Source: Minisyncoccota bacterium
Lineage (GTDB): Bacteria > Patescibacteriota > Microgenomatia > UBA1400 > PJMF01
NCBI GenBank assembly: GCA_018657765.1
Contig: JABHWM010000018.1
Span: forward strand, 91,541-155,540
DNA length: 64,000 nt
Reading direction: 5' to 3'
Within the stretch, counting starts at the first letter, position 1, and every line of letters starts with the position of its first letter. Under the pieces are notes generated by a model. That model was given only the letters and a program-made list of their open reading frames with translations, had not been told where the DNA came from and made no database searches. Shown piece after piece: positions 3,836-57,359 of the stretch. Made by a program: the position numbers and the translations under genes.

Positions 3836-4462
3836 TTAAAATAATATTTCTTCTATATTTCCTTTTAATTTTTTTGTTTGTTTTTGTTGTCCTATCCAGT
3901 CTAGAATCTTTTCTATCTTTTGAAAATCAGCTAAAAAGGATATTTTTGTTTTTCCAGAGTAAAGTGCTGCTGCTGGATGATACATTGGTAAAATAAATAT
4001 ATTTTTACCTTCCCAATTTACCTTGTGTAAATGACCATGAACCTGAGAGATTTTTACATCTGGTAAAAACTTTCCCATACTAAACCTACCAAGCGTCACG
4101 ATTATTTCTGGTTGTAAGATCTCTATTTCTTTGTTTAGAAAAGGTCTATAAGCTTCTATTTCCTCTGGTGTAGGATCTCTATTCTCGGGAGGTCTTACTT
4201 TTACAATATTACTAATAAAGACTTTTTCTGGTTTCAAGCCTACTTCTGTAAGAGTTTTTCTGAGTAGCTTTCCAGATCTCCCAACAAATGGTCTTCGTTG
4301 AATTGCTTCATCTTTACCTGGTGCTTCTCCTATCAACATAATCTTTGCACTGGCGTCACCTTCACCATGTACTAGATCTTCTTTTTTTGTAGCTAAAGGG
4401 AGAATATGATATGAATTTTCTATTTCTTGTTGCAAATCCTCGAGCAAAGCAGCTTTATCCAT
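3836..4462 (-). CDS. Uracil-DNA glycosylase family 4, lacking Fe-S cysteines
   Basis: GEAPG, PFVG, RPPENRDP and YHPAAAL motifs; no Cys in the protein. Confidence 0.92.
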   Translation of the reverse strand: MDKAALLEDLQQEIENSYHILPLATKKEDLVHGEGDASAKIMLIGEAPGKDEAIQRRPFVGRSGKLLRKTLTEVGLKPEKVFISNIVKVRPPENRDPTPEEIEAYRPFLNKEIEILQPEIIVTLGRFSMGKFLPDVKISQVHGHLHKVNWEGKNIFILPMYHPAAALYSGKTKISFLADFQKIEKILDWIGQQKQTKKLKGNIEEILF

Positions 4463-19233: not shown

Positions 19234-21804
19234 TTATCCCACTGACCCCTCCATCTCAAAATCAATTAATCTATTCATCTCCACCGCATACTCCAAAGGT
19301 AACTTTCTCACCAGATCCGCAATAAAACCATTGACGATCATTTTTCTAGCATTTTCTTCTGAGACACCTCTACTCATCAGATAAAACAACTGATCATCAC
19401 CCACTTTGGAAACAGTAGCTTCATGCTGAATCTCTACCTGGTTATTAGATATTTTATCTACGGGATATGTATCAGATCTAGAATCACCATCCAAAATCAA
19501 GGCATCACAAACAACTGTGTTTTTACTATGGTGAGCTTCAGGGGCAACATAAACTAAGCCTCTATAACTAGCTCTACCACCACCTTTACTAATAGATTTT
19601 GAGATAATCGTTGAAGAAGTATAAGGAGCTAAATGAATCGCCTTAGCACCGGTATCTTGATGTTGTCCATGTCCCGCCAAAGCCATCGATAAAACCTCAC
19701 CCTTTGCACCTTTGCCTGCCAAAATATACCCAGGATATTTCATTGTTACTTGTGAACCCATGTTGAAATCAGTCCAGACCATTTTTCCATCTTCATGAAC
19801 ATAAGCTCTTTGAGTTACTAAGTTATAAATATTCTTATACCAATTCTGAACAGTAGTGTACTGACAGGTAGCTCCTTTTTTTACGATAATCTCTACCACT
19901 CCAGAGTGAAGAGAACTCGAGGCAAATTGAGGTGCCGTACAATTATGAACTGCAACTCCATTGGCTACATAACTTTCATCTTGTTTAACACTAAAATTAT
20001 AAACATCAATATTTTTTACTTCAGTTTTAGAAATATTATTTACTGGAGAATATAAATATTTATCATCTAAATAATAAAAAGTTGCTCTTTTTTTTCCATT
20101 TATTTTTGCTTCTATTTTCTGACCAACTAACTCACCAAACTTAACCATGTATTCACCACCAATAACCAGATTAAACATTGTTTGACGACCTTCATGTTTT
20201 CTAACTCTCTTATTAATACCACAAGCGATATCTAATCTTAGTAAAATCTGTTTCATCTGATAAACCAAATTTTTAGAAGTAGTTGAACCTCTAAATATTT
20301 CTTTTAAACCATGTTTTAACTGCTTATTGTAATAATTCCCATCACCTCTATACCAGCCCAAAATCACTTCTGATTGTTTCTTTGGAGAAGCCTGCATAAC
20401 CCATTTGGGAACTTGTTTACTTGACGATGATGTACCAAATTGCTCAAAAATTCTACATAATTTTGTTGAACTAACAACAACAGACGTTCCATTATTAGTT
20501 TTATGATGATTTTCTCTAATTCTATCCTCATTAAAAACCAATTTAATTAGCCTTTTTACATCATCAATATATTCTCTTTCATAAGATCCAAAAGAAAAAT
20601 TCAAATAGTGACCACTACTAATACTACCCTCTGCCAAATAGTAGCCAATTAATCTAAAAAACTCAGGTATTAAAGGTACTTTTACAGCAACTTTAGAAAA
20701 ACCATGTCTACCTGCTCCCATTTTAATAGTCTGTTCAAGAAACTTAGATTCTTTTACTAATCTATCTATAGGAGTACAAACATAATCTCCTTTAGTTACA
20801 TTTTTTATAGCTAACCACTCTGGTTTCCACTTTTTATTACGTTCATTATTTTTTATTCTCTTAACAACAAGAAATGGATGCTCTTCTGTGGCCTCAATAA
20901 CTTGATGGATATTTCCGGTTACTTTAACTTCATAAAGCTCCCCAGAATATTTTCTAATCTGGGTATGACCAACTGATCTAACCCTACCAGCATGGGTCAA
21001 AACTTTATCTGTAGCCAAAACATCTTTAATAGGAATAATTCCTCTATCTGTCGTAATTTCTGTCTCTGCTGTAAAACAGCCTTCTACGTAATGAACAGAA
21101 GCTCCTTCATCCACAATAATCAAGGTTCTCTCGAACTGCCCAAAAGATTCTGAGTTAATCCTAAAGTAAGTCTGTAAAGGCATTTTTACATGAACTCCAG
21201 GAGGAATATAAACAAAAGATCCACCAGACCATACAGCAGTATTAAGAGCTGCATATTTATTATCATCATTAGGGATTACTGTCCCAAAATATTTTTTGAA
21301 TAATTCTGGATGCTTAGACAAACCTTCTTCTATAGAAACAAAGATTACTCCATCTTTTTCCCAGGCCTGTTTTAGTGATCCATAAATGATTTCACTATCA
21401 TATTGAGCTTTTACCCCAGCCAGGTGAGCTCTCTCTGCTTCTGGAACACCGATTCTCTCGAAGGTTTCTTTTACTTCTGGAGGAACATCATCCCAAGACC
21501 TTGCTTGTTGATCGGTTGGTTTCAGATAATATGATAAATCATCCAGTTTGAGATCAGATAAATCTGGACCCCAGCTAGGAATTTTTTTATTCTGGAATTC
21601 TTTAAAACCAGCCAAACGATTCTTTAACATCCAGTCTGGTTCTTGTTTCATACCAGAAATCTTCTTTACTATTGCTTCATCCAAACCTTTTTCAGCCTGA
21701 AAAGCATAATCTTTGGTATTAAAAGAATATCCATGCTCATAACTATCTTGATCTTTTATGAAATTATCCCCTGGTTTACTGACTTTGGTAGTTTTTTTAG
21801 CCAT
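19234..21804 (-). CDS. sufB: Fe-S cluster assembly protein SufB with intein (477-aa extein)
   Basis: AQYDSE, WSGGSFVY, GQFERTLII, YVEG|CTAP, LHSGVVE, HEATVSK, EMEGSVG C-terminus. Confidence 0.97.
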   Translation of the reverse strand: MAKKTTKVSKPGDNFIKDQDSYEHGYSFNTKDYAFQAEKGLDEAIVKKISGMKQEPDWMLKNRLAGFKEFQNKKIPSWGPDLSDLKLDDLSYYLKPTDQQARSWDDVPPEVKETFERIGVPEAERAHLAGVKAQYDSEIIYGSLKQAWEKDGVIFVSIEEGLSKHPELFKKYFGTVIPNDDNKYAALNTAVWSGGSFVYIPPGVHVKMPLQTYFRINSESFGQFERTLIIVDEGASVHYVEGCFTAETEITTDRGIIPIKDVLATDKVLTHAGRVRSVGHTQIRKYSGELYEVKVTGNIHQVIEATEEHPFLVVKRIKNNERNKKWKPEWLAIKNVTKGDYVCTPIDRLVKESKFLEQTIKMGAGRHGFSKVAVKVPLIPEFFRLIGYYLAEGSISSGHYLNFSFGSYEREYIDDVKRLIKLVFNEDRIRENHHKTNNGTSVVVSSTKLCRIFEQFGTSSSSKQVPKWVMQASPKKQSEVILGWYRGDGNYYNKQLKHGLKEIFRGSTTSKNLVYQMKQILLRLDIACGINKRVRKHEGRQTMFNLVIGGEYMVKFGELVGQKIEAKINGKKRATFYYLDDKYLYSPVNNISKTEVKNIDVYNFSVKQDESYVANGVAVHNCTAPQFASSSLHSGVVEIIVKKGATCQYTTVQNWYKNIYNLVTQRAYVHEDGKMVWTDFNMGSQVTMKYPGYILAGKGAKGEVLSMALAGHGQHQDTGAKAIHLAPYTSSTIISKSISKGGGRASYRGLVYVAPEAHHSKNTVVCDALILDGDSRSDTYPVDKISNNQVEIQHEATVSKVGDDQLFYLMSRGVSEENARKMIVNGFIADLVRKLPLEYAVEMNRLIDFEMEGSVG
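19942..21078 (-). mobile_element. Intein with LAGLIDADG homing endonuclease (379 aa) in sufB
   Basis: Starts CFTAET after VHYVEG; block B ATEEHPF; LIGYYLAEG and ILGWYRGDG motifs; block F VYNFSV; ends AVHN before C+1 (CTAP). Confidence 0.96.
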
Positions 21805-31396: not shown

Positions 31397-32740
31397 TTAC
31401 TTTGCTTCAGTTTCTTCTACTTTTTCTTCAGTTGATTCTGTCTTTAAAGCTTCTGCATCAGCCAAGAAACTCTTCTCAAGTTCTGCACGAGCTTTCATTC
31501 TAGCTTCTTGCTCTTTTTTATCTGCTTCTACTTTTTTGGTCAAAATCTCTTTTTGATCATCTTCCAGATCTAACATCTCCATCCATTTGTTTTCAAAACG
31601 AACTAAATCATTAAGAGTAGTGAGTTTATGACTAATAAGCTGTTCTCTGGTTTCATCACTAATACCTTTGAAAGTATCAATCTCATATTCTTCTTTACCA
31701 GTAGCTTTGGTCTCGATCTTACCGCTAGCAGACTTGATAGTGATCTTATATTCAGTAAGCTTGGCAGCAAGACGAACATTTTGTCCACCTCTACCAATTA
31801 CCAAAGAAAGTTGATCATCAGGAGCAGTCACTTCTGCTGTCTTTTTCTCTTCATCTACTTCTATCAATAAATTCTCTGCTGGAGCCAAGGCACCTTTGAA
31901 ATATGTAACCATGTCATCAGAGTGAGGAATAATATCGATTTTTTCGTTATTTAATTCTTCGATTACTTTCTGAACACGAACACCACGTTGTCCAACACAT
32001 GAACCAACTGGATCTACACCTTCTTGAACAGAACGGACAGCGAGTTTAGTTCTAACCCCTGCTTCTCTAGCAATTGCTACAACTTCTACTGCACCAGATG
32101 CAACTTCAGGAACTTCACGTTCAAATAACTTGGAAACTAAGTTCTTATCAGCTCTGGAAACAACCACTACCTGACCACGAACTGTTTCACGAATATCTTT
32201 GATATATACAGCAAGACGAGCATTAAGACGATAAAATTCTCCACGCATCTGCTCTTCTGGAGGCATCCAACCATGACCTCTGCCCATATCAATAATTACA
32301 TTACGACGATCCATACGAAGAACTTGACCAGTGATCATGTCACCGATTTTGTCTTGGAACTCAGAGATTATTTGATCTCTCTCTGAGCGACGAATCTTTT
32401 GCAAGATAACTTGCTTTGCAGTTTGAGCAGCAATTCTTCCAAATCCTGCTGGAGTAACATCTTCAGATTTCTTTTCATCCCACTTGGTAGGCTCTAATGT
32501 TTCTTCATCAAACTCCAAGACTGGAGCTTTGAAAATTCTAGCTTCACCTGTTTCTTCATTTAGTTCTGTGTAGTAGTAAAAATCATCATCCAAGAATCCC
32601 ATTTGCTTACGATAAGCAGATACGAGAGCCTGACGAATAGCGTCAAAAATAGCTGATGCTTCGATTTTTCTTTCTGATGCAATTTGAGCAATAGCAGCTG
32701 CGAACTCTGTTCTAGCAGTTGTTGAAATCTTATTAGACAT
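31397..32740 (-). CDS. nusA: Transcription factor NusA
   Basis: FGRIAAQTAKQVI, EVPEV, AREAGVRTK, DPVGSCVG, IGRGGQNVRLA. Confidence 0.97.
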   Translation of the reverse strand: MSNKISTTARTEFAAAIAQIASERKIEASAIFDAIRQALVSAYRKQMGFLDDDFYYYTELNEETGEARIFKAPVLEFDEETLEPTKWDEKKSEDVTPAGFGRIAAQTAKQVILQKIRRSERDQIISEFQDKIGDMITGQVLRMDRRNVIIDMGRGHGWMPPEEQMRGEFYRLNARLAVYIKDIRETVRGQVVVVSRADKNLVSKLFEREVPEVASGAVEVVAIAREAGVRTKLAVRSVQEGVDPVGSCVGQRGVRVQKVIEELNNEKIDIIPHSDDMVTYFKGALAPAENLLIEVDEEKKTAEVTAPDDQLSLVIGRGGQNVRLAAKLTEYKITIKSASGKIETKATGKEEYEIDTFKGISDETREQLISHKLTTLNDLVRFENKWMEMLDLEDDQKEILTKKVEADKKEQEARMKARAELEKSFLADAEALKTESTEEKVEETEAK

Positions 32741-55009: not shown

Positions 55010-56044
55010 TTAATTTAATTGGTTTTCAATTCCCAATACTTGGTAAACTTCTTTCATCGTAGCATCAGCTACTTTAGCAGCTTCGTCTGCACCATTCTTA
55101 AGAATCTCTTTAACTTGATTCAAATCCTGCTCAAGATTTCTTCTACGATCACGAGCTTGTGCAAACATTCTCTGATGAGCCAAGAAAAGCTTTTCTTTGA
55201 CTTCTACATCACCCACTGTTCCAACAGTATATCTATCCTTCAAATCAGCCACTTCAGCTAAGTCATCATTCAATAAATCATGATACAAAAACACTGGATT
55301 ACCTTCTACTTTTCCAGGATCAGTAGCCTTTTTTCTATTGGGATCTGTAAAACAACTCATGATCTGTTTACGAATCACTGCCTCATCCTCGAAAATACCG
55401 ATAATATTACCCAAAGATTTACTCATCTTACGCTTACCATCTGTACCAATAATCTTACCAATAGTTTTTGAGATTAATGGTTCTGGCAAAGGAAAGACAT
55501 CCTTCTTATATGTACGATTAAAGTTCTCTGCAATATCGCGAGCCAGCTCAATGTGTTGCCTTTGATCCTCACCAACAGGTACCCCAAATGGCTTATATAT
55601 CAAAATATCTGCTGCCATCAAGATAGGATAGTTAAACAAGCCCATGTTGATAGATTCCACACCTACATTTTTCTGTAACTTATCCTTGAAAGCATGCATT
55701 CTTTTCATTTGACCAAAAGAAACATAATTAGCCAAGACTACAGCTAGCTGCGTATGAGACATTACCTGAGATTGACGAAAAAACACTGAGTTACTCGGAT
55801 CTAGTCCCAATGATAAATAATCCAAAACAACTCCAGTAATATTCTTTTCTAGAGCTGCTGCATCATGAACTGTTGTCAGAGCATGAAGATCAGCTATAAA
55901 ATAATGGGTATCTGTTGTCAGATCATTCTGTAGTTCTAGCTGTGGTTTTACCGCACCAAAATAGTTCCCGATGTGGAGTGAGTTACCACTGGGAGTAATA
56001 CCAGATAAAATTCTTTTTTTGTTATTTGTTTGTTGTGTTGACAT
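55010..56044 (-). CDS. trpS: Tryptophanyl-tRNA synthetase
   Basis: HIGN, ADLHALT, YPILMAADIL, VPVGEDQ, KMSKS. Confidence 0.98.
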   Translation of the reverse strand: MSTQQTNNKKRILSGITPSGNSLHIGNYFGAVKPQLELQNDLTTDTHYFIADLHALTTVHDAAALEKNITGVVLDYLSLGLDPSNSVFFRQSQVMSHTQLAVVLANYVSFGQMKRMHAFKDKLQKNVGVESINMGLFNYPILMAADILIYKPFGVPVGEDQRQHIELARDIAENFNRTYKKDVFPLPEPLISKTIGKIIGTDGKRKMSKSLGNIIGIFEDEAVIRKQIMSCFTDPNRKKATDPGKVEGNPVFLYHDLLNDDLAEVADLKDRYTVGTVGDVEVKEKLFLAHQRMFAQARDRRRNLEQDLNQVKEILKNGADEAAKVADATMKEVYQVLGIENQLN

Positions 56045-56117
56045 ATGACTTTCTTAATTATAAATGAATACTATTTTTTTCTGAGAGGAAAATAATTTCA
56101 AAATATCTTTTTGATAT

Positions 56118-56230
56118 AAAAAATCCCCTCAACAGGGGCTTTATATATTTTATATATTTAGATACACAAAAATCCCCTAAACTAGAGAGGTTCGCCAATA
56201 AAAGCTAGAATTTGTGTTTAGAATTAACAT
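56118..56230 (-). promoter_or_regulatory. Putative Trp attenuator: leader peptide, antiterminator and terminator
   Basis: Leader ORF 56230-56177; two AGGGGATTTTT segments compete for one AAAGCCCCT segment. Confidence 0.75.
56177..56230 (-). CDS. TrpL-like leader peptide MLILNTNSSFYWRTSLV
   Basis: ATG...TGG CGA ACC TCT CTA GTT TAG; WRTS equals the end of E. coli TrpL (WWRTS). Confidence 0.7.
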   Translation of the reverse strand: MLILNTNSSFYWRTSLV

Positions 56231-56241
56231 ATTTTTCTTAA

Positions 56242-56405
56242 TAGATTTGTAGTAAAACAAAAATTATTGTTAATTTTGCATATATTTTATTAAATTTAGA
56301 TTTTTCTGATGACAATAGTAGCTATGTCTACTTGCGGAAGAAGAAAATTATAAATTTTTAAAATAGATGTAAAAGTGCTGTTATTTTTATTTTACTACAA
56401 ATCTA
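56242..56405. repeat. 23-bp inverted repeat (22/23 identical) around a 118-bp spacer
   Basis: TAGATTTGTAGTAAAACAAAAAT (56242-56264) versus ATTTTTATTTTACTACAAATCTA (56383-56405). Confidence 0.85.
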
Positions 56406-56489
56406 ATATAAATCTTAAAATAAATTAAAGATACCAAAAAATCACTGAATCCATAGATTATTAATTAAAATAATCTATGAATTATTCAA

Positions 56490-57359
56490 CTATAGTTCTT
56501 CTATTTGAACATTAGGGTTCAAATCAGGAGTGTCTATAAGATTGAGATATTTTTCAGTAGTAGTAATACGTTTGTGACCAACTAGTTGAGAAACATAAAC
56601 CAATGGTGTTCCAGCTTTGAGCTGTTCAACAATGAAAGTATGTCTAAGATCATTTACCTTAGCTCCTTTAATACCGGCCAAACGGAAATAACGATCGATA
56701 GCTGTACGAATATTTCTAACCAAGAATGGTCTACATGTTTTGGTTAAAAAGACTGTTTTTTCTCTAGCTCTAGGACGAACCTTGAGATATTCCATAACAG
56801 CTTTTTTGGCAGCTTTATTCAAAGGAACTTTACGTTCTTCTCTAGAATTTTGAGCTAAGATCATGATGATACCTCTTTCAAGATCAACATCATCAGAAGC
56901 CAAAGCCGCTAACTCACTGATTCTCATACCAGTCTGTAAAAGTAATTCTACAATTGCAAAAATACGAGCATCACCTCTACAAGCATCTCTCAGAGCACGA
57001 TACTCCAGACGAGAAAGAACTCTTGGGGGAACTTGCTCTATTTTTGGATGAGTAATAGCCTGAGCTGGATTTGTTTCAACAATGCTTTCTGCTATTAAAT
57101 AGCGGAAGAAAGCCTTGATAGAATTAATCTTTCTAGAAATAGATTTACTTGTGTAACGTTTCTGTTTTAAATCACTTTTGAAAAGATCAATATCATCAGT
57201 AGAAACCTCGGCAGCCAATGTTTTACCATTGTTACCAACGAATTGAACTAATTGCTCAATGTCTTTGCTATAAGCAATAACCGTAGCATTAGCTTTACCT
57301 TTTTCTCTAAGGTGTTGTTCAAATTTGACGTGAGCGTCAACCAAAACTGTCTGTTGCAT
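56490..57359 (-). CDS. Tyrosine recombinase, XerC/XerD family
   Basis: N-terminal SAM-like domain, TGMRISEL, NDLRHTF, LVGH-x3-TTEKY. Confidence 0.92.
   Translation of the reverse strand: MQQTVLVDAHVKFEQHLREKGKANATVIAYSKDIEQLVQFVGNNGKTLAAEVSTDDIDLFKSDLKQKRYTSKSISRKINSIKAFFRYLIAESIVETNPAQAITHPKIEQVPPRVLSRLEYRALRDACRGDARIFAIVELLLQTGMRISELAALASDDVDLERGIIMILAQNSREERKVPLNKAAKKAVMEYLKVRPRAREKTVFLTKTCRPFLVRNIRTAIDRYFRLAGIKGAKVNDLRHTFIVEQLKAGTPLVYVSQLVGHKRITTTEKYLNLIDTPDLNPNVQIEEL

Follow-up and report, generated by a model that had tools for sequence, protein, structure and literature searches.

A probable leader-peptide attenuator upstream of trpS in a Minisyncoccota bacterium and its Microgenomates-type relatives

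The 5' leader of trpS, the gene for tryptophanyl-tRNA synthetase, in a Minisyncoccota bacterium probably carries a transcription attenuator of the ribosome-mediated (leader-peptide) type, with charged tRNA-Trp as the signal sensed; we put the probability of this reading at roughly 0.75. The element lies in a stretch of 64,000 nucleotides (nt), called the window here (GenBank assembly GCA_018657765.1, contig JABHWM010000018.1, positions 91,541-155,540 of the forward strand), and all window positions below are counted from its first letter. A preliminary description of this DNA had proposed a ribosome-mediated Trp attenuator at trpS, and comparative evidence now supports that proposal through homologous upstream open reading frames (uORFs), an alternative between two mutually exclusive pairings (2:3 and 3:4), and a constant geometry around the stop codon. 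Comparison establishes the elements themselves, their homology in 10 other genomes, the covariation of the terminator, the fixed position that segment 2 takes at the stop codon, and an association with trpS or trpB-trpS.

All features of the element lie in a 445-nt spacer on the minus strand, between an Xer-like gene and trpS. The leader uORF (56230-56177; MLILNTNSSFYWRTSLV) has 17 codons plus a stop, starts with ATG, ends with TAG at 56179-56177, and follows an AAGAAA similar to the purine tract ahead of trpS. Its sole Trp codon, the presumed regulatory TGG at 56197-56195, lies five codons before the stop; in the family alignment (A2), it corresponds to the first W of a WW pair in relatives, and the second aligned position is CGA. 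Segment 1 (CCTCT, 56190-56186) is a weak partner for segment 2 in a predicted 1:2 hairpin. Segment 2 (AGGGGATTTTT, 56178-56168) overlaps the stop codon; as the best complement of segment 3, it reads TAGGGGATTTTT (56179-56168), with a start position of -1 nt relative to the stop's first base. Segment 3 (AAAGCCCCT, 56142-56134) is common to the antiterminator 2:3 and the terminator 3:4, as indicated by folding and helix covariation, while segment 4 with its U-tract (AGGGGATTTTTT, 56129-56118) forms the 3' arm of an intrinsic terminator, as indicated by a terminator scan, folding, and covariation. The presumed regulated gene, at 56044-55010 on the same strand, encodes a tryptophan--tRNA ligase of 344 amino acids (aa) that matches PF00579 and TIGR00233, the latter at 298 bits (cut-off, 176.75). 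The coordinates of the uORF, the TGG, and segments 1 to 4 given in the preliminary description are all correct, as is its naming of the downstream gene.

Taken by itself, the window's element could be chance. Its fold z-scores span -1.4 to -2.8: the 2:3 antiterminator, counted with an inner AU-rich stem (TTTTGTGTAT/ATATATAAAA), has a predicted free energy of -12.8 kcal/mol (z, -2.8, matched by 4 of 200 shuffles), the extended 3:4 terminator one of -9.4 kcal/mol (z, -2.0), and the whole 126-nt leader one of -25.6 kcal/mol (z, -1.85). The terminator scan lists CCCCTGTTGAGGGG with its T-run and also lists the 1:2 hairpin as a second terminator-like site. A loose pattern (an ATG-initiated uORF of 8 to 30 codons, the last W 2 to 6 codons before the stop, and a terminator 15 to 110 nt later) matches twice over both strands of the window, the second time at 32337-32375. 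At the gathering threshold, no Rfam family matched anywhere in the 64-kb window, nor was a tRNA or rRNA found there. At a permissive threshold, the full Rfam Trp_leader model (RF00513) aligns with 56203-56116, but its 22.8 bits fall short of the cut-off of 41; the other permissive matches in 55900-56600 are all sub-threshold, and Trp_leader alone is meaningful. Such weak single-sequence statistics, together with the second pattern match and the low Trp_leader score, speak for an ordinary intrinsic terminator after xer, with a fortuitous short open reading frame (ORF) in an AT-rich spacer, and it is the related genomes that argue otherwise.

A single scan, in which species-representative genomes were queried with TrpS, yielded 77 loci (L001-L077) from Pacebacteria, Woesebacteria, Collierbacteria, Dojkabacteria, Roizmanbacteria, and other Patescibacteria-type assemblies, with best-segment TrpS identities of 35% to 84%. 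Upstream of trpS, the closest relatives have a short uORF in which two Trp codons stand in tandem; a G-rich box at its stop and a terminator follow. A pattern scan over both strands of the 77 loci (969,594 nt) returned 33 rows, 10 of which, in 8 loci, have WW near the stop. Those in L001, L002, L003, L006, L017, and L070 lie at most 300 nt upstream of trpS. The WW leader of L010 is farther upstream (616 nt), separated from trpS by a 99-aa ORF without a known family, and the L021 row, located 3.2 kb beyond the start of trpS, has the appearance of a longer gene's end. Read up to the stop, the WW tails are FAWWSLFA (L001), FSWWRHSK (L002), SSWWASLK (L003), FAWWNLFN (L006), SSWWTSLS (L010), SAWWLSQN (L017), and SAWWTRL (L070). 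Single-W leaders end in TAWQSSSK (L016, 146 nt upstream of trpS), SSYWHNPE (L018, 1020 nt upstream), and ACWLNSK (L043, where the leader precedes trpB). The element is thus present in 10 of the 77 loci, seven with tandem WW and three with a single W, and its shared parts are a uORF of 15 to 19 codons with WW or W 3 to 5 codons ahead of the stop, a segment 2 that is rich in G and lies at the stop, a segment 3 complementary to it, and a T-run terminator. The preliminary description had suggested looking in related genomes for uORFs with W and for covarying stems ahead of trpS; both are found in these 10 loci, with compensatory changes in the helix, and the uORF and its Trp codon are conserved. 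Seven of the nine loci whose TrpS match is at least 75% identical carry the element, and L004 and L067 do not. In L003, L016, and L017, other genes lie between xer and the leader, and the leader remains beside trpS. Searches of the 77 loci with the 445-nt spacer by blastn and nhmmer gave weak leader matches in L001 and L006 only, plus a match to L058 upstream of the uORF.

Many of the related assemblies carry the titles "uncultured Pseudomonadales" or "Gammaproteobacteria." These labels look wrong because TrpS and the gene order are of the Patescibacteria type.

The geometry of the element was compared in 11 sequences, namely, the window and the 10 loci. The terminator was located by folding, segment 2 was defined as the best complement of the terminator 5' arm and loop, sought between the last Trp codon and segment 3, and 1000 dinucleotide shuffles of the search region were made per locus. 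The start of segment 2 falls at -1 to +5 nt relative to the stop codon's first base in all 11 sequences; all of them also have the last W 3 to 5 codons before the stop and keep at least one TGG at two aligned codon positions. The 2:3 pairing uses the terminator 5' arm in every sequence and is hence mutually exclusive with the terminator. It is also at least as stable, with predicted free energies of -11.5 to -16.8 kcal/mol versus -7.9 to -14.2 kcal/mol for 3:4. Shuffled sequences rarely do as well: 2:3 beats them in 9 of 11 loci (1 to 40 per 1000 as good) but not in L006 (112) or L043 (113), the counts being 30 of 1000 for the window and 13, 112, 113, 24, 31, 40, 3, 10, 7, and 1 for the others.

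Moreover, segments 2, 3, and 4 co-vary by lineage. Their cores read GGGG/CCCC/GGGG in the window, L001, L006, L002, and L043 and GGGAG/CTCCC/GGGAG in L003, L010, and L017; L018 has CGCGGG with CTCCCG, L070 has GGGAG/CTCCC for 2:3 with a 3' arm of GGAGAGC, and L016 has a set of its own. In the 7-bp terminator helix (alignment A2, 11 sequences), 94.8% of cells are paired, and four of the seven pairs have changed on both sides. Its covariation is 0.540, versus 0.232 in shuffles (0 of 500 reach the observed value), and slid registers give at most 0.22. In MAFFT alignments, the register of segment 2 against the stop codon is not constant, so the 2:3 helix was assessed by the per-sequence duplex test and shuffles rather than by column-wise covariation.

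The uORF peptides are poorly conserved apart from the W codons and their distance to the stop. This is difficult to reconcile with a small peptide that has its own function, comparable to rhizobial peTrpL, and a terminator that just ends a small gene. Trans functions of a trp leader peptide and of attenuator RNA have been reported (PMC7298713 and PMC7968998), which lends that explanation some precedent, but it leaves the alternative 2:3 pairing unexplained and is itself compatible with attenuation; we consider it highly improbable.

Covariance models place the window's copy within this family. Model R1 was built from A2, window included, and its 11 training sequences score 49.5 to 85.4 bits, separated from the rest of 548,797 nt. 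Model R2 was built from the 10 relatives only and matches the window at 56203-56113 with 50.7 bits over the full model (rough E value, 1.5e-9; next window match, 18.6 bits), although its alignment (A4) was fitted with R1, which had seen the window, and this constitutes a small leak. Judged by this match, the window's element is a member of a Microgenomates trpS/trpB Trp-leader family, defined here by R2. Both the leave-one-out score and the conservation and covariation in 10 other genomes of the uORF, the Trp codon position, segment 2 at the stop, and the terminator contradict a fortuitous pairing of terminator and short ORF, which retains hardly any probability.

The arrangement suggests a mechanism for attenuation at trpS. 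RNA polymerase would transcribe the 17-codon uORF and then segments 2, 3, and 4. With Trp-tRNA plentiful, the ribosome would reach the stop codon and, because this codon overlaps segment 2, cover that segment; segment 3 would then pair with segment 4, and transcription would end at the U-tract at about 56118. With Trp-tRNA scarce, the ribosome would stall at the TGG at 56197-56195 and cover segment 1, leaving segment 2 free. A ribosome covers approximately 12 to 15 nt downstream of its decoding site, and the footprint of one with the Trp codon in its A site would end just short of segment 2. The free segment 2 would pair with segment 3, and the terminator would be unable to form because the antiterminator is at least as stable; polymerase would read into trpS and probably also into the gene for a tRNA-binding protein that follows it. 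Because 2:3 is stronger than 1:2, the terminating ribosome would probably be the main anti-antiterminator, and without translation, the default would be read-through, an emphasis that differs from the enterobacterial textbook case. We infer termination, read-through, the promoter position, and the share of trpS expression under the element's control from these arrangements. NusA, which we count in favor of attenuation, is encoded within the window.

Several known systems invite comparison. The enterobacterial trpL leader (RF00513) likewise has a short uORF, Trp codons a few codons before the stop, the 1:2/2:3/3:4 logic, and a U-tract terminator, and positions 1-100 of the Trp_leader model align end to end with both the window's element and that of L002. 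Nevertheless, L002 scores 30.6 bits as the best of the relatives and so, like the window's copy, stays below the cut-off. In contrast to trpL, the element described here would control a synthetase gene instead of a biosynthetic operon, has a segment 2 that overlaps the stop and a weak 1:2 pairing, resides in a candidate phyla radiation (CPR) bacterium, and, in the window, has one Trp codon.

Classical attenuators have been predicted before trpS and leuS in Streptomyces, with gamma-proteobacterial pheST as the precedent (PMC1262725). The Streptomyces trpS case is alike in placing a leader-peptide attenuator before a tryptophanyl-tRNA synthetase gene but concerns another phylum and a high-GC host, and the likeness is drawn from its description. 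The pheST leader similarly puts an aminoacyl-tRNA synthetase operon under leader-peptide attenuation (PMC1262725), with Phe codons there and Trp codons here. The Rfam Phe_leader model, which represents the phenylalanine leader peptide and may not cover pheST, gave weak sub-threshold matches of 19.9 and 29.7 bits versus a cut-off of 55. Also, an experimental paper by Vecchione and Sello (2010) reportedly deals, to go by its title, with an auxiliary, antibiotic-resistant trpS copy of Streptomyces.

In the T-box leaders of aminoacyl-tRNA synthetase genes in Firmicutes, more synthetase is made when the tRNA is uncharged, and the output is likewise a choice between terminator and antiterminator; the difference is that translation of Trp codons, not tRNA binding, would do the sensing here. 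Setting of the switch by a trans factor rather than the ribosome, either through a T-box-like tRNA contact or through a Trp-binding protein of the Trp_repressor or YerC type, would agree with the Trp_repressor-family genes that adjoin trpB or trpS in several relatives. However, no T-box was found in the window at the gathering threshold, in 55900-56600 at an E value of up to 10, or in the 10 relatives at an E value of up to 1, and no other Rfam family reached its cut-off in the window or those relatives. The family scan also saw no Trp_repressor gene beside the window's element. Moreover, the Trp codons are in frame and keep a fixed spacing, counted in codons, to a stop that abuts segment 2, a feature that only a ribosome reads, and we judge the involvement of a trans factor very unlikely.

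The preliminary description had the impression that such control had not been reported in this group, and in the literature searched, we indeed found no description of leader-peptide attenuation in Patescibacteria or the CPR. One paper in the CPR literature searched uses the term "leader peptide" for bacteriocin processing, and we came across almost nothing published on gene regulation in these bacteria. CPR bacteria have very small genomes and are mostly uncultured. The novelty lies in the host group and the leader family, since this kind of element, and the control of trpS by it in Actinobacteria, was already known; with this finding, classical attenuation of aminoacyl-tRNA synthetase genes would reach past the Proteobacteria and Actinobacteria. 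The conserved leader indicates that these organisms meet a fluctuating supply of tryptophan and answer with more synthetase or with more of the enzyme that converts indole to Trp. The element is also a concrete cis unit that can be tested in a heterologous host, and the covariance model allows the rest of the radiation to be surveyed.

A number of observations weigh against attenuation at this locus. Most related loci (67 of 77) lack such a leader, and L013 has xer, a terminator, and trpS but no uORF. The window's copy has one Trp codon only, and the G/C core of its terminator is 5 bp, a stem as short as the preliminary description had said. The foldings proposed there were reproduced, 2:3 at -12.8 kcal/mol and 3:4 at -9.4 kcal/mol, but the 1:2 hairpin, at -4.1 kcal/mol, is no better than shuffles, of which 111 of 200 are as good, or 338 of 1000 in a second test. 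In the family, 1:2 hairpins with lineage-specific sequences are predicted in 10 of 11 loci (not in L070) and beat shuffles in none; the 1:2 pairing is suggestive and forms the weakest leg of the proposed switch. The shuffle counts overstate independence because the loci are related.

Promoter-like sites add to these objections. A -10-like TATAAT (56062-56057, minus strand) lies 12 nt 5' of the trpS ATG, and a -10-like box is found between terminator and trpS in 7 of the 8 loci with an adjacent leader, so that trpS may start, at least in part, downstream of the terminator. The trpS-proximal box also occurs without an adjacent leader (L004, L005, L008, L010, and L013). Overall, 24 of 78 sequences have TAnnAT at 9 to 18 nt before the ATG of trpS, compared to a background of 5.6%. 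Upstream of the uORF, a TAnnnT hexamer ends 5 to 9 nt before the ATG in 9 of 11 sequences (background, 229 of 2290 ATGs), with the -10-like forms TATAAT, TAGAAT, TATACT, or TATGAT, four of them with a TGn extension. The window is one of the two without this box, having TATTAA and an AAGAAA tract instead, and a promoter scan detected no promoter-like site just upstream of its uORF. In the nine sequences with the hexamer, no purine tract separates it from the uORF ATG, which suggests that the leader peptide in these relatives is translated from leaderless transcripts. The spacer between xer and the uORF is about 20 nt in L001 and L006, and the window has 260 nt extra. The terminator scan found no terminator-like site between xer and the window's uORF, so read-through from xer is possible.

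One could thus regard the window's copy as an eroded attenuator, that is, a descendant of a WW leader that has largely lost its regulation and acts mainly as a terminator for xer and the uORF, with trpS transcribed from the proximal TATAAT. The single W in place of WW, the weak 1:2 pairing, the missing TAnnnT before the uORF, the 260-nt insertion between xer and the uORF, and the TATAAT 12 nt before the trpS ATG would all be in keeping with erosion. Yet segments 2, 3, and 4 and their overlap with the stop have been kept intact, the antiterminator still exceeds the terminator in stability, and single-W versions recur in three other genomes with intact alternative structures. The TATAAT at 56062-56057 is possibly a proximal trpS promoter but possibly also part of an AT-rich ribosome-binding region. 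A start set by this box would fall at or after the conserved purine tract (AAGAAAG), which argues that a longer mRNA also exists. On balance, we think that loss of regulation is unlikely, although less so than the explanations weighed above. If the box is a promoter, functional attenuation would be consistent with a basal, attenuator-independent trpS transcript to which the attenuator adds inducible read-through.

Attenuation of trpS may be part of a wider response to tryptophan. In L043, the trpS-type leader heads trpB-trpS, with trpB (TIGR00263, 575 bits) directly followed by trpS. A second type of Trp leader, with its own terminator, lies directly 5' of trpB in L043 (1570-1620), L022 (1597-1662), L038 (1590-1652), and L046 (4057-4119). 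Its uORF carries WW and then another W about 5 codons later, near the stop; the four tails read NWWSSKYLW, KWWQANYLWR, DWWQMYLLWRGQV, and VWWTRSRWRG. L043 therefore has a trpS-type leader followed by a leader of the second type, that is, two attenuators in tandem.

A third arrangement comes from R1 matches of 28 to 43 bits, in which the Trp codons are in the C-terminal tails of Trp_repressor-family ORFs (PF01371; L027 329-637, L026 752-1054, L015 1395-1709, and L062 1458-1745), for example, SESWWDSSSEKGVL and AHAWRGSSD. All four ORFs are followed by a terminator, and a G-rich, antiterminator-like box is present at the stop in L026 and L062. It is as if the 3' end of the Trp_repressor-family gene itself served as the attenuator leader. 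We tentatively propose, at somewhat less than even odds, that Microgenomates-type CPR bacteria run a small Trp-sensing attenuation regulon composed of the trpS leader, a WW-x-x-x-Y-L-W leader before lone trpB, and, in some genomes, Trp_repressor-tail sensors, with mostly leaderless uORFs. If this is true, the regulon would be the first RNA-level amino acid-sensing system described in this radiation, and in the Trp_repressor-tail case, a regulator gene and an attenuator leader would be fused in an unusual way. These side features (the second leader type, the Trp_repressor-tail leaders, and the apparently leaderless uORFs) may be more novel than the trpS attenuator.

Other peculiarities were seen around trpS in the survey. 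Conserved W-rich uORFs, such as MKFFAWWLGKYLWRAKT, begin one base 3' of the trpS stop in L068 (1720-1773) and L069 (4025-4078), and a similar ORF lies a few bases after trpS in L060 (~4061-4164). Such post-trpS uORFs are followed by a terminator and then a gene; this gene is peptidase M28-like in L068 and TrpB-like in L060. In L062, L014, L019, L024, L032, L040, L046-L049, L051, L053-L055, and L063, the trpS reading frame stays open over a further 500 to 1800 nt or so on its upstream side. TrpS in L062 (2497-4017) is fused at its N terminus to an aminoacyl-tRNA editing domain (PF04073, YbaK-like), giving a product of 506 aa.

The window has a G+C content of about 35% and reads cleanly in table 11. 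Downstream of trpS by 82 nt, a gene for a 111-aa protein with a tRNA-binding domain (54927-54592, minus strand; PF01588) may be cotranscribed with it, as the terminator scan found no terminator-like site between the two. Family-library scans identified no aminoacyl-tRNA synthetase gene besides trpS among the 45 window ORFs scanned. The preliminary description had presumed an auxotroph; trpB was not found in the window, but it adjoins trpS in 9 of 77 relatives.

Directly 5' of the element, at 57359-56490 on the minus strand, the family scan identified an Xer-like tyrosine recombinase gene, and the order xer-trpS on the same strand is shared with 16 loci. Within the spacer after this gene, a 97-nt stretch (56254-56347, minus strand) is 75% identical to the xer-trpS spacer of L058 (2866-2962; blastn E value, 1e-10), and it includes a 23-nt imperfect palindrome (56311-56333, minus strand) shared exactly with L058. 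Save for one weak match, the palindrome is absent from the other loci with up to 5 mismatches allowed. It may be a dif-like recombinase site beside the Xer-like gene, and L058 has the palindrome site but lacks the Trp leader. Elsewhere in the window, the SufB gene (856 aa; 19234-21804, minus strand) is interrupted by an intein, with splicing-region models matching residues 243-313 (N-terminal) and 600-622 (C-terminal).

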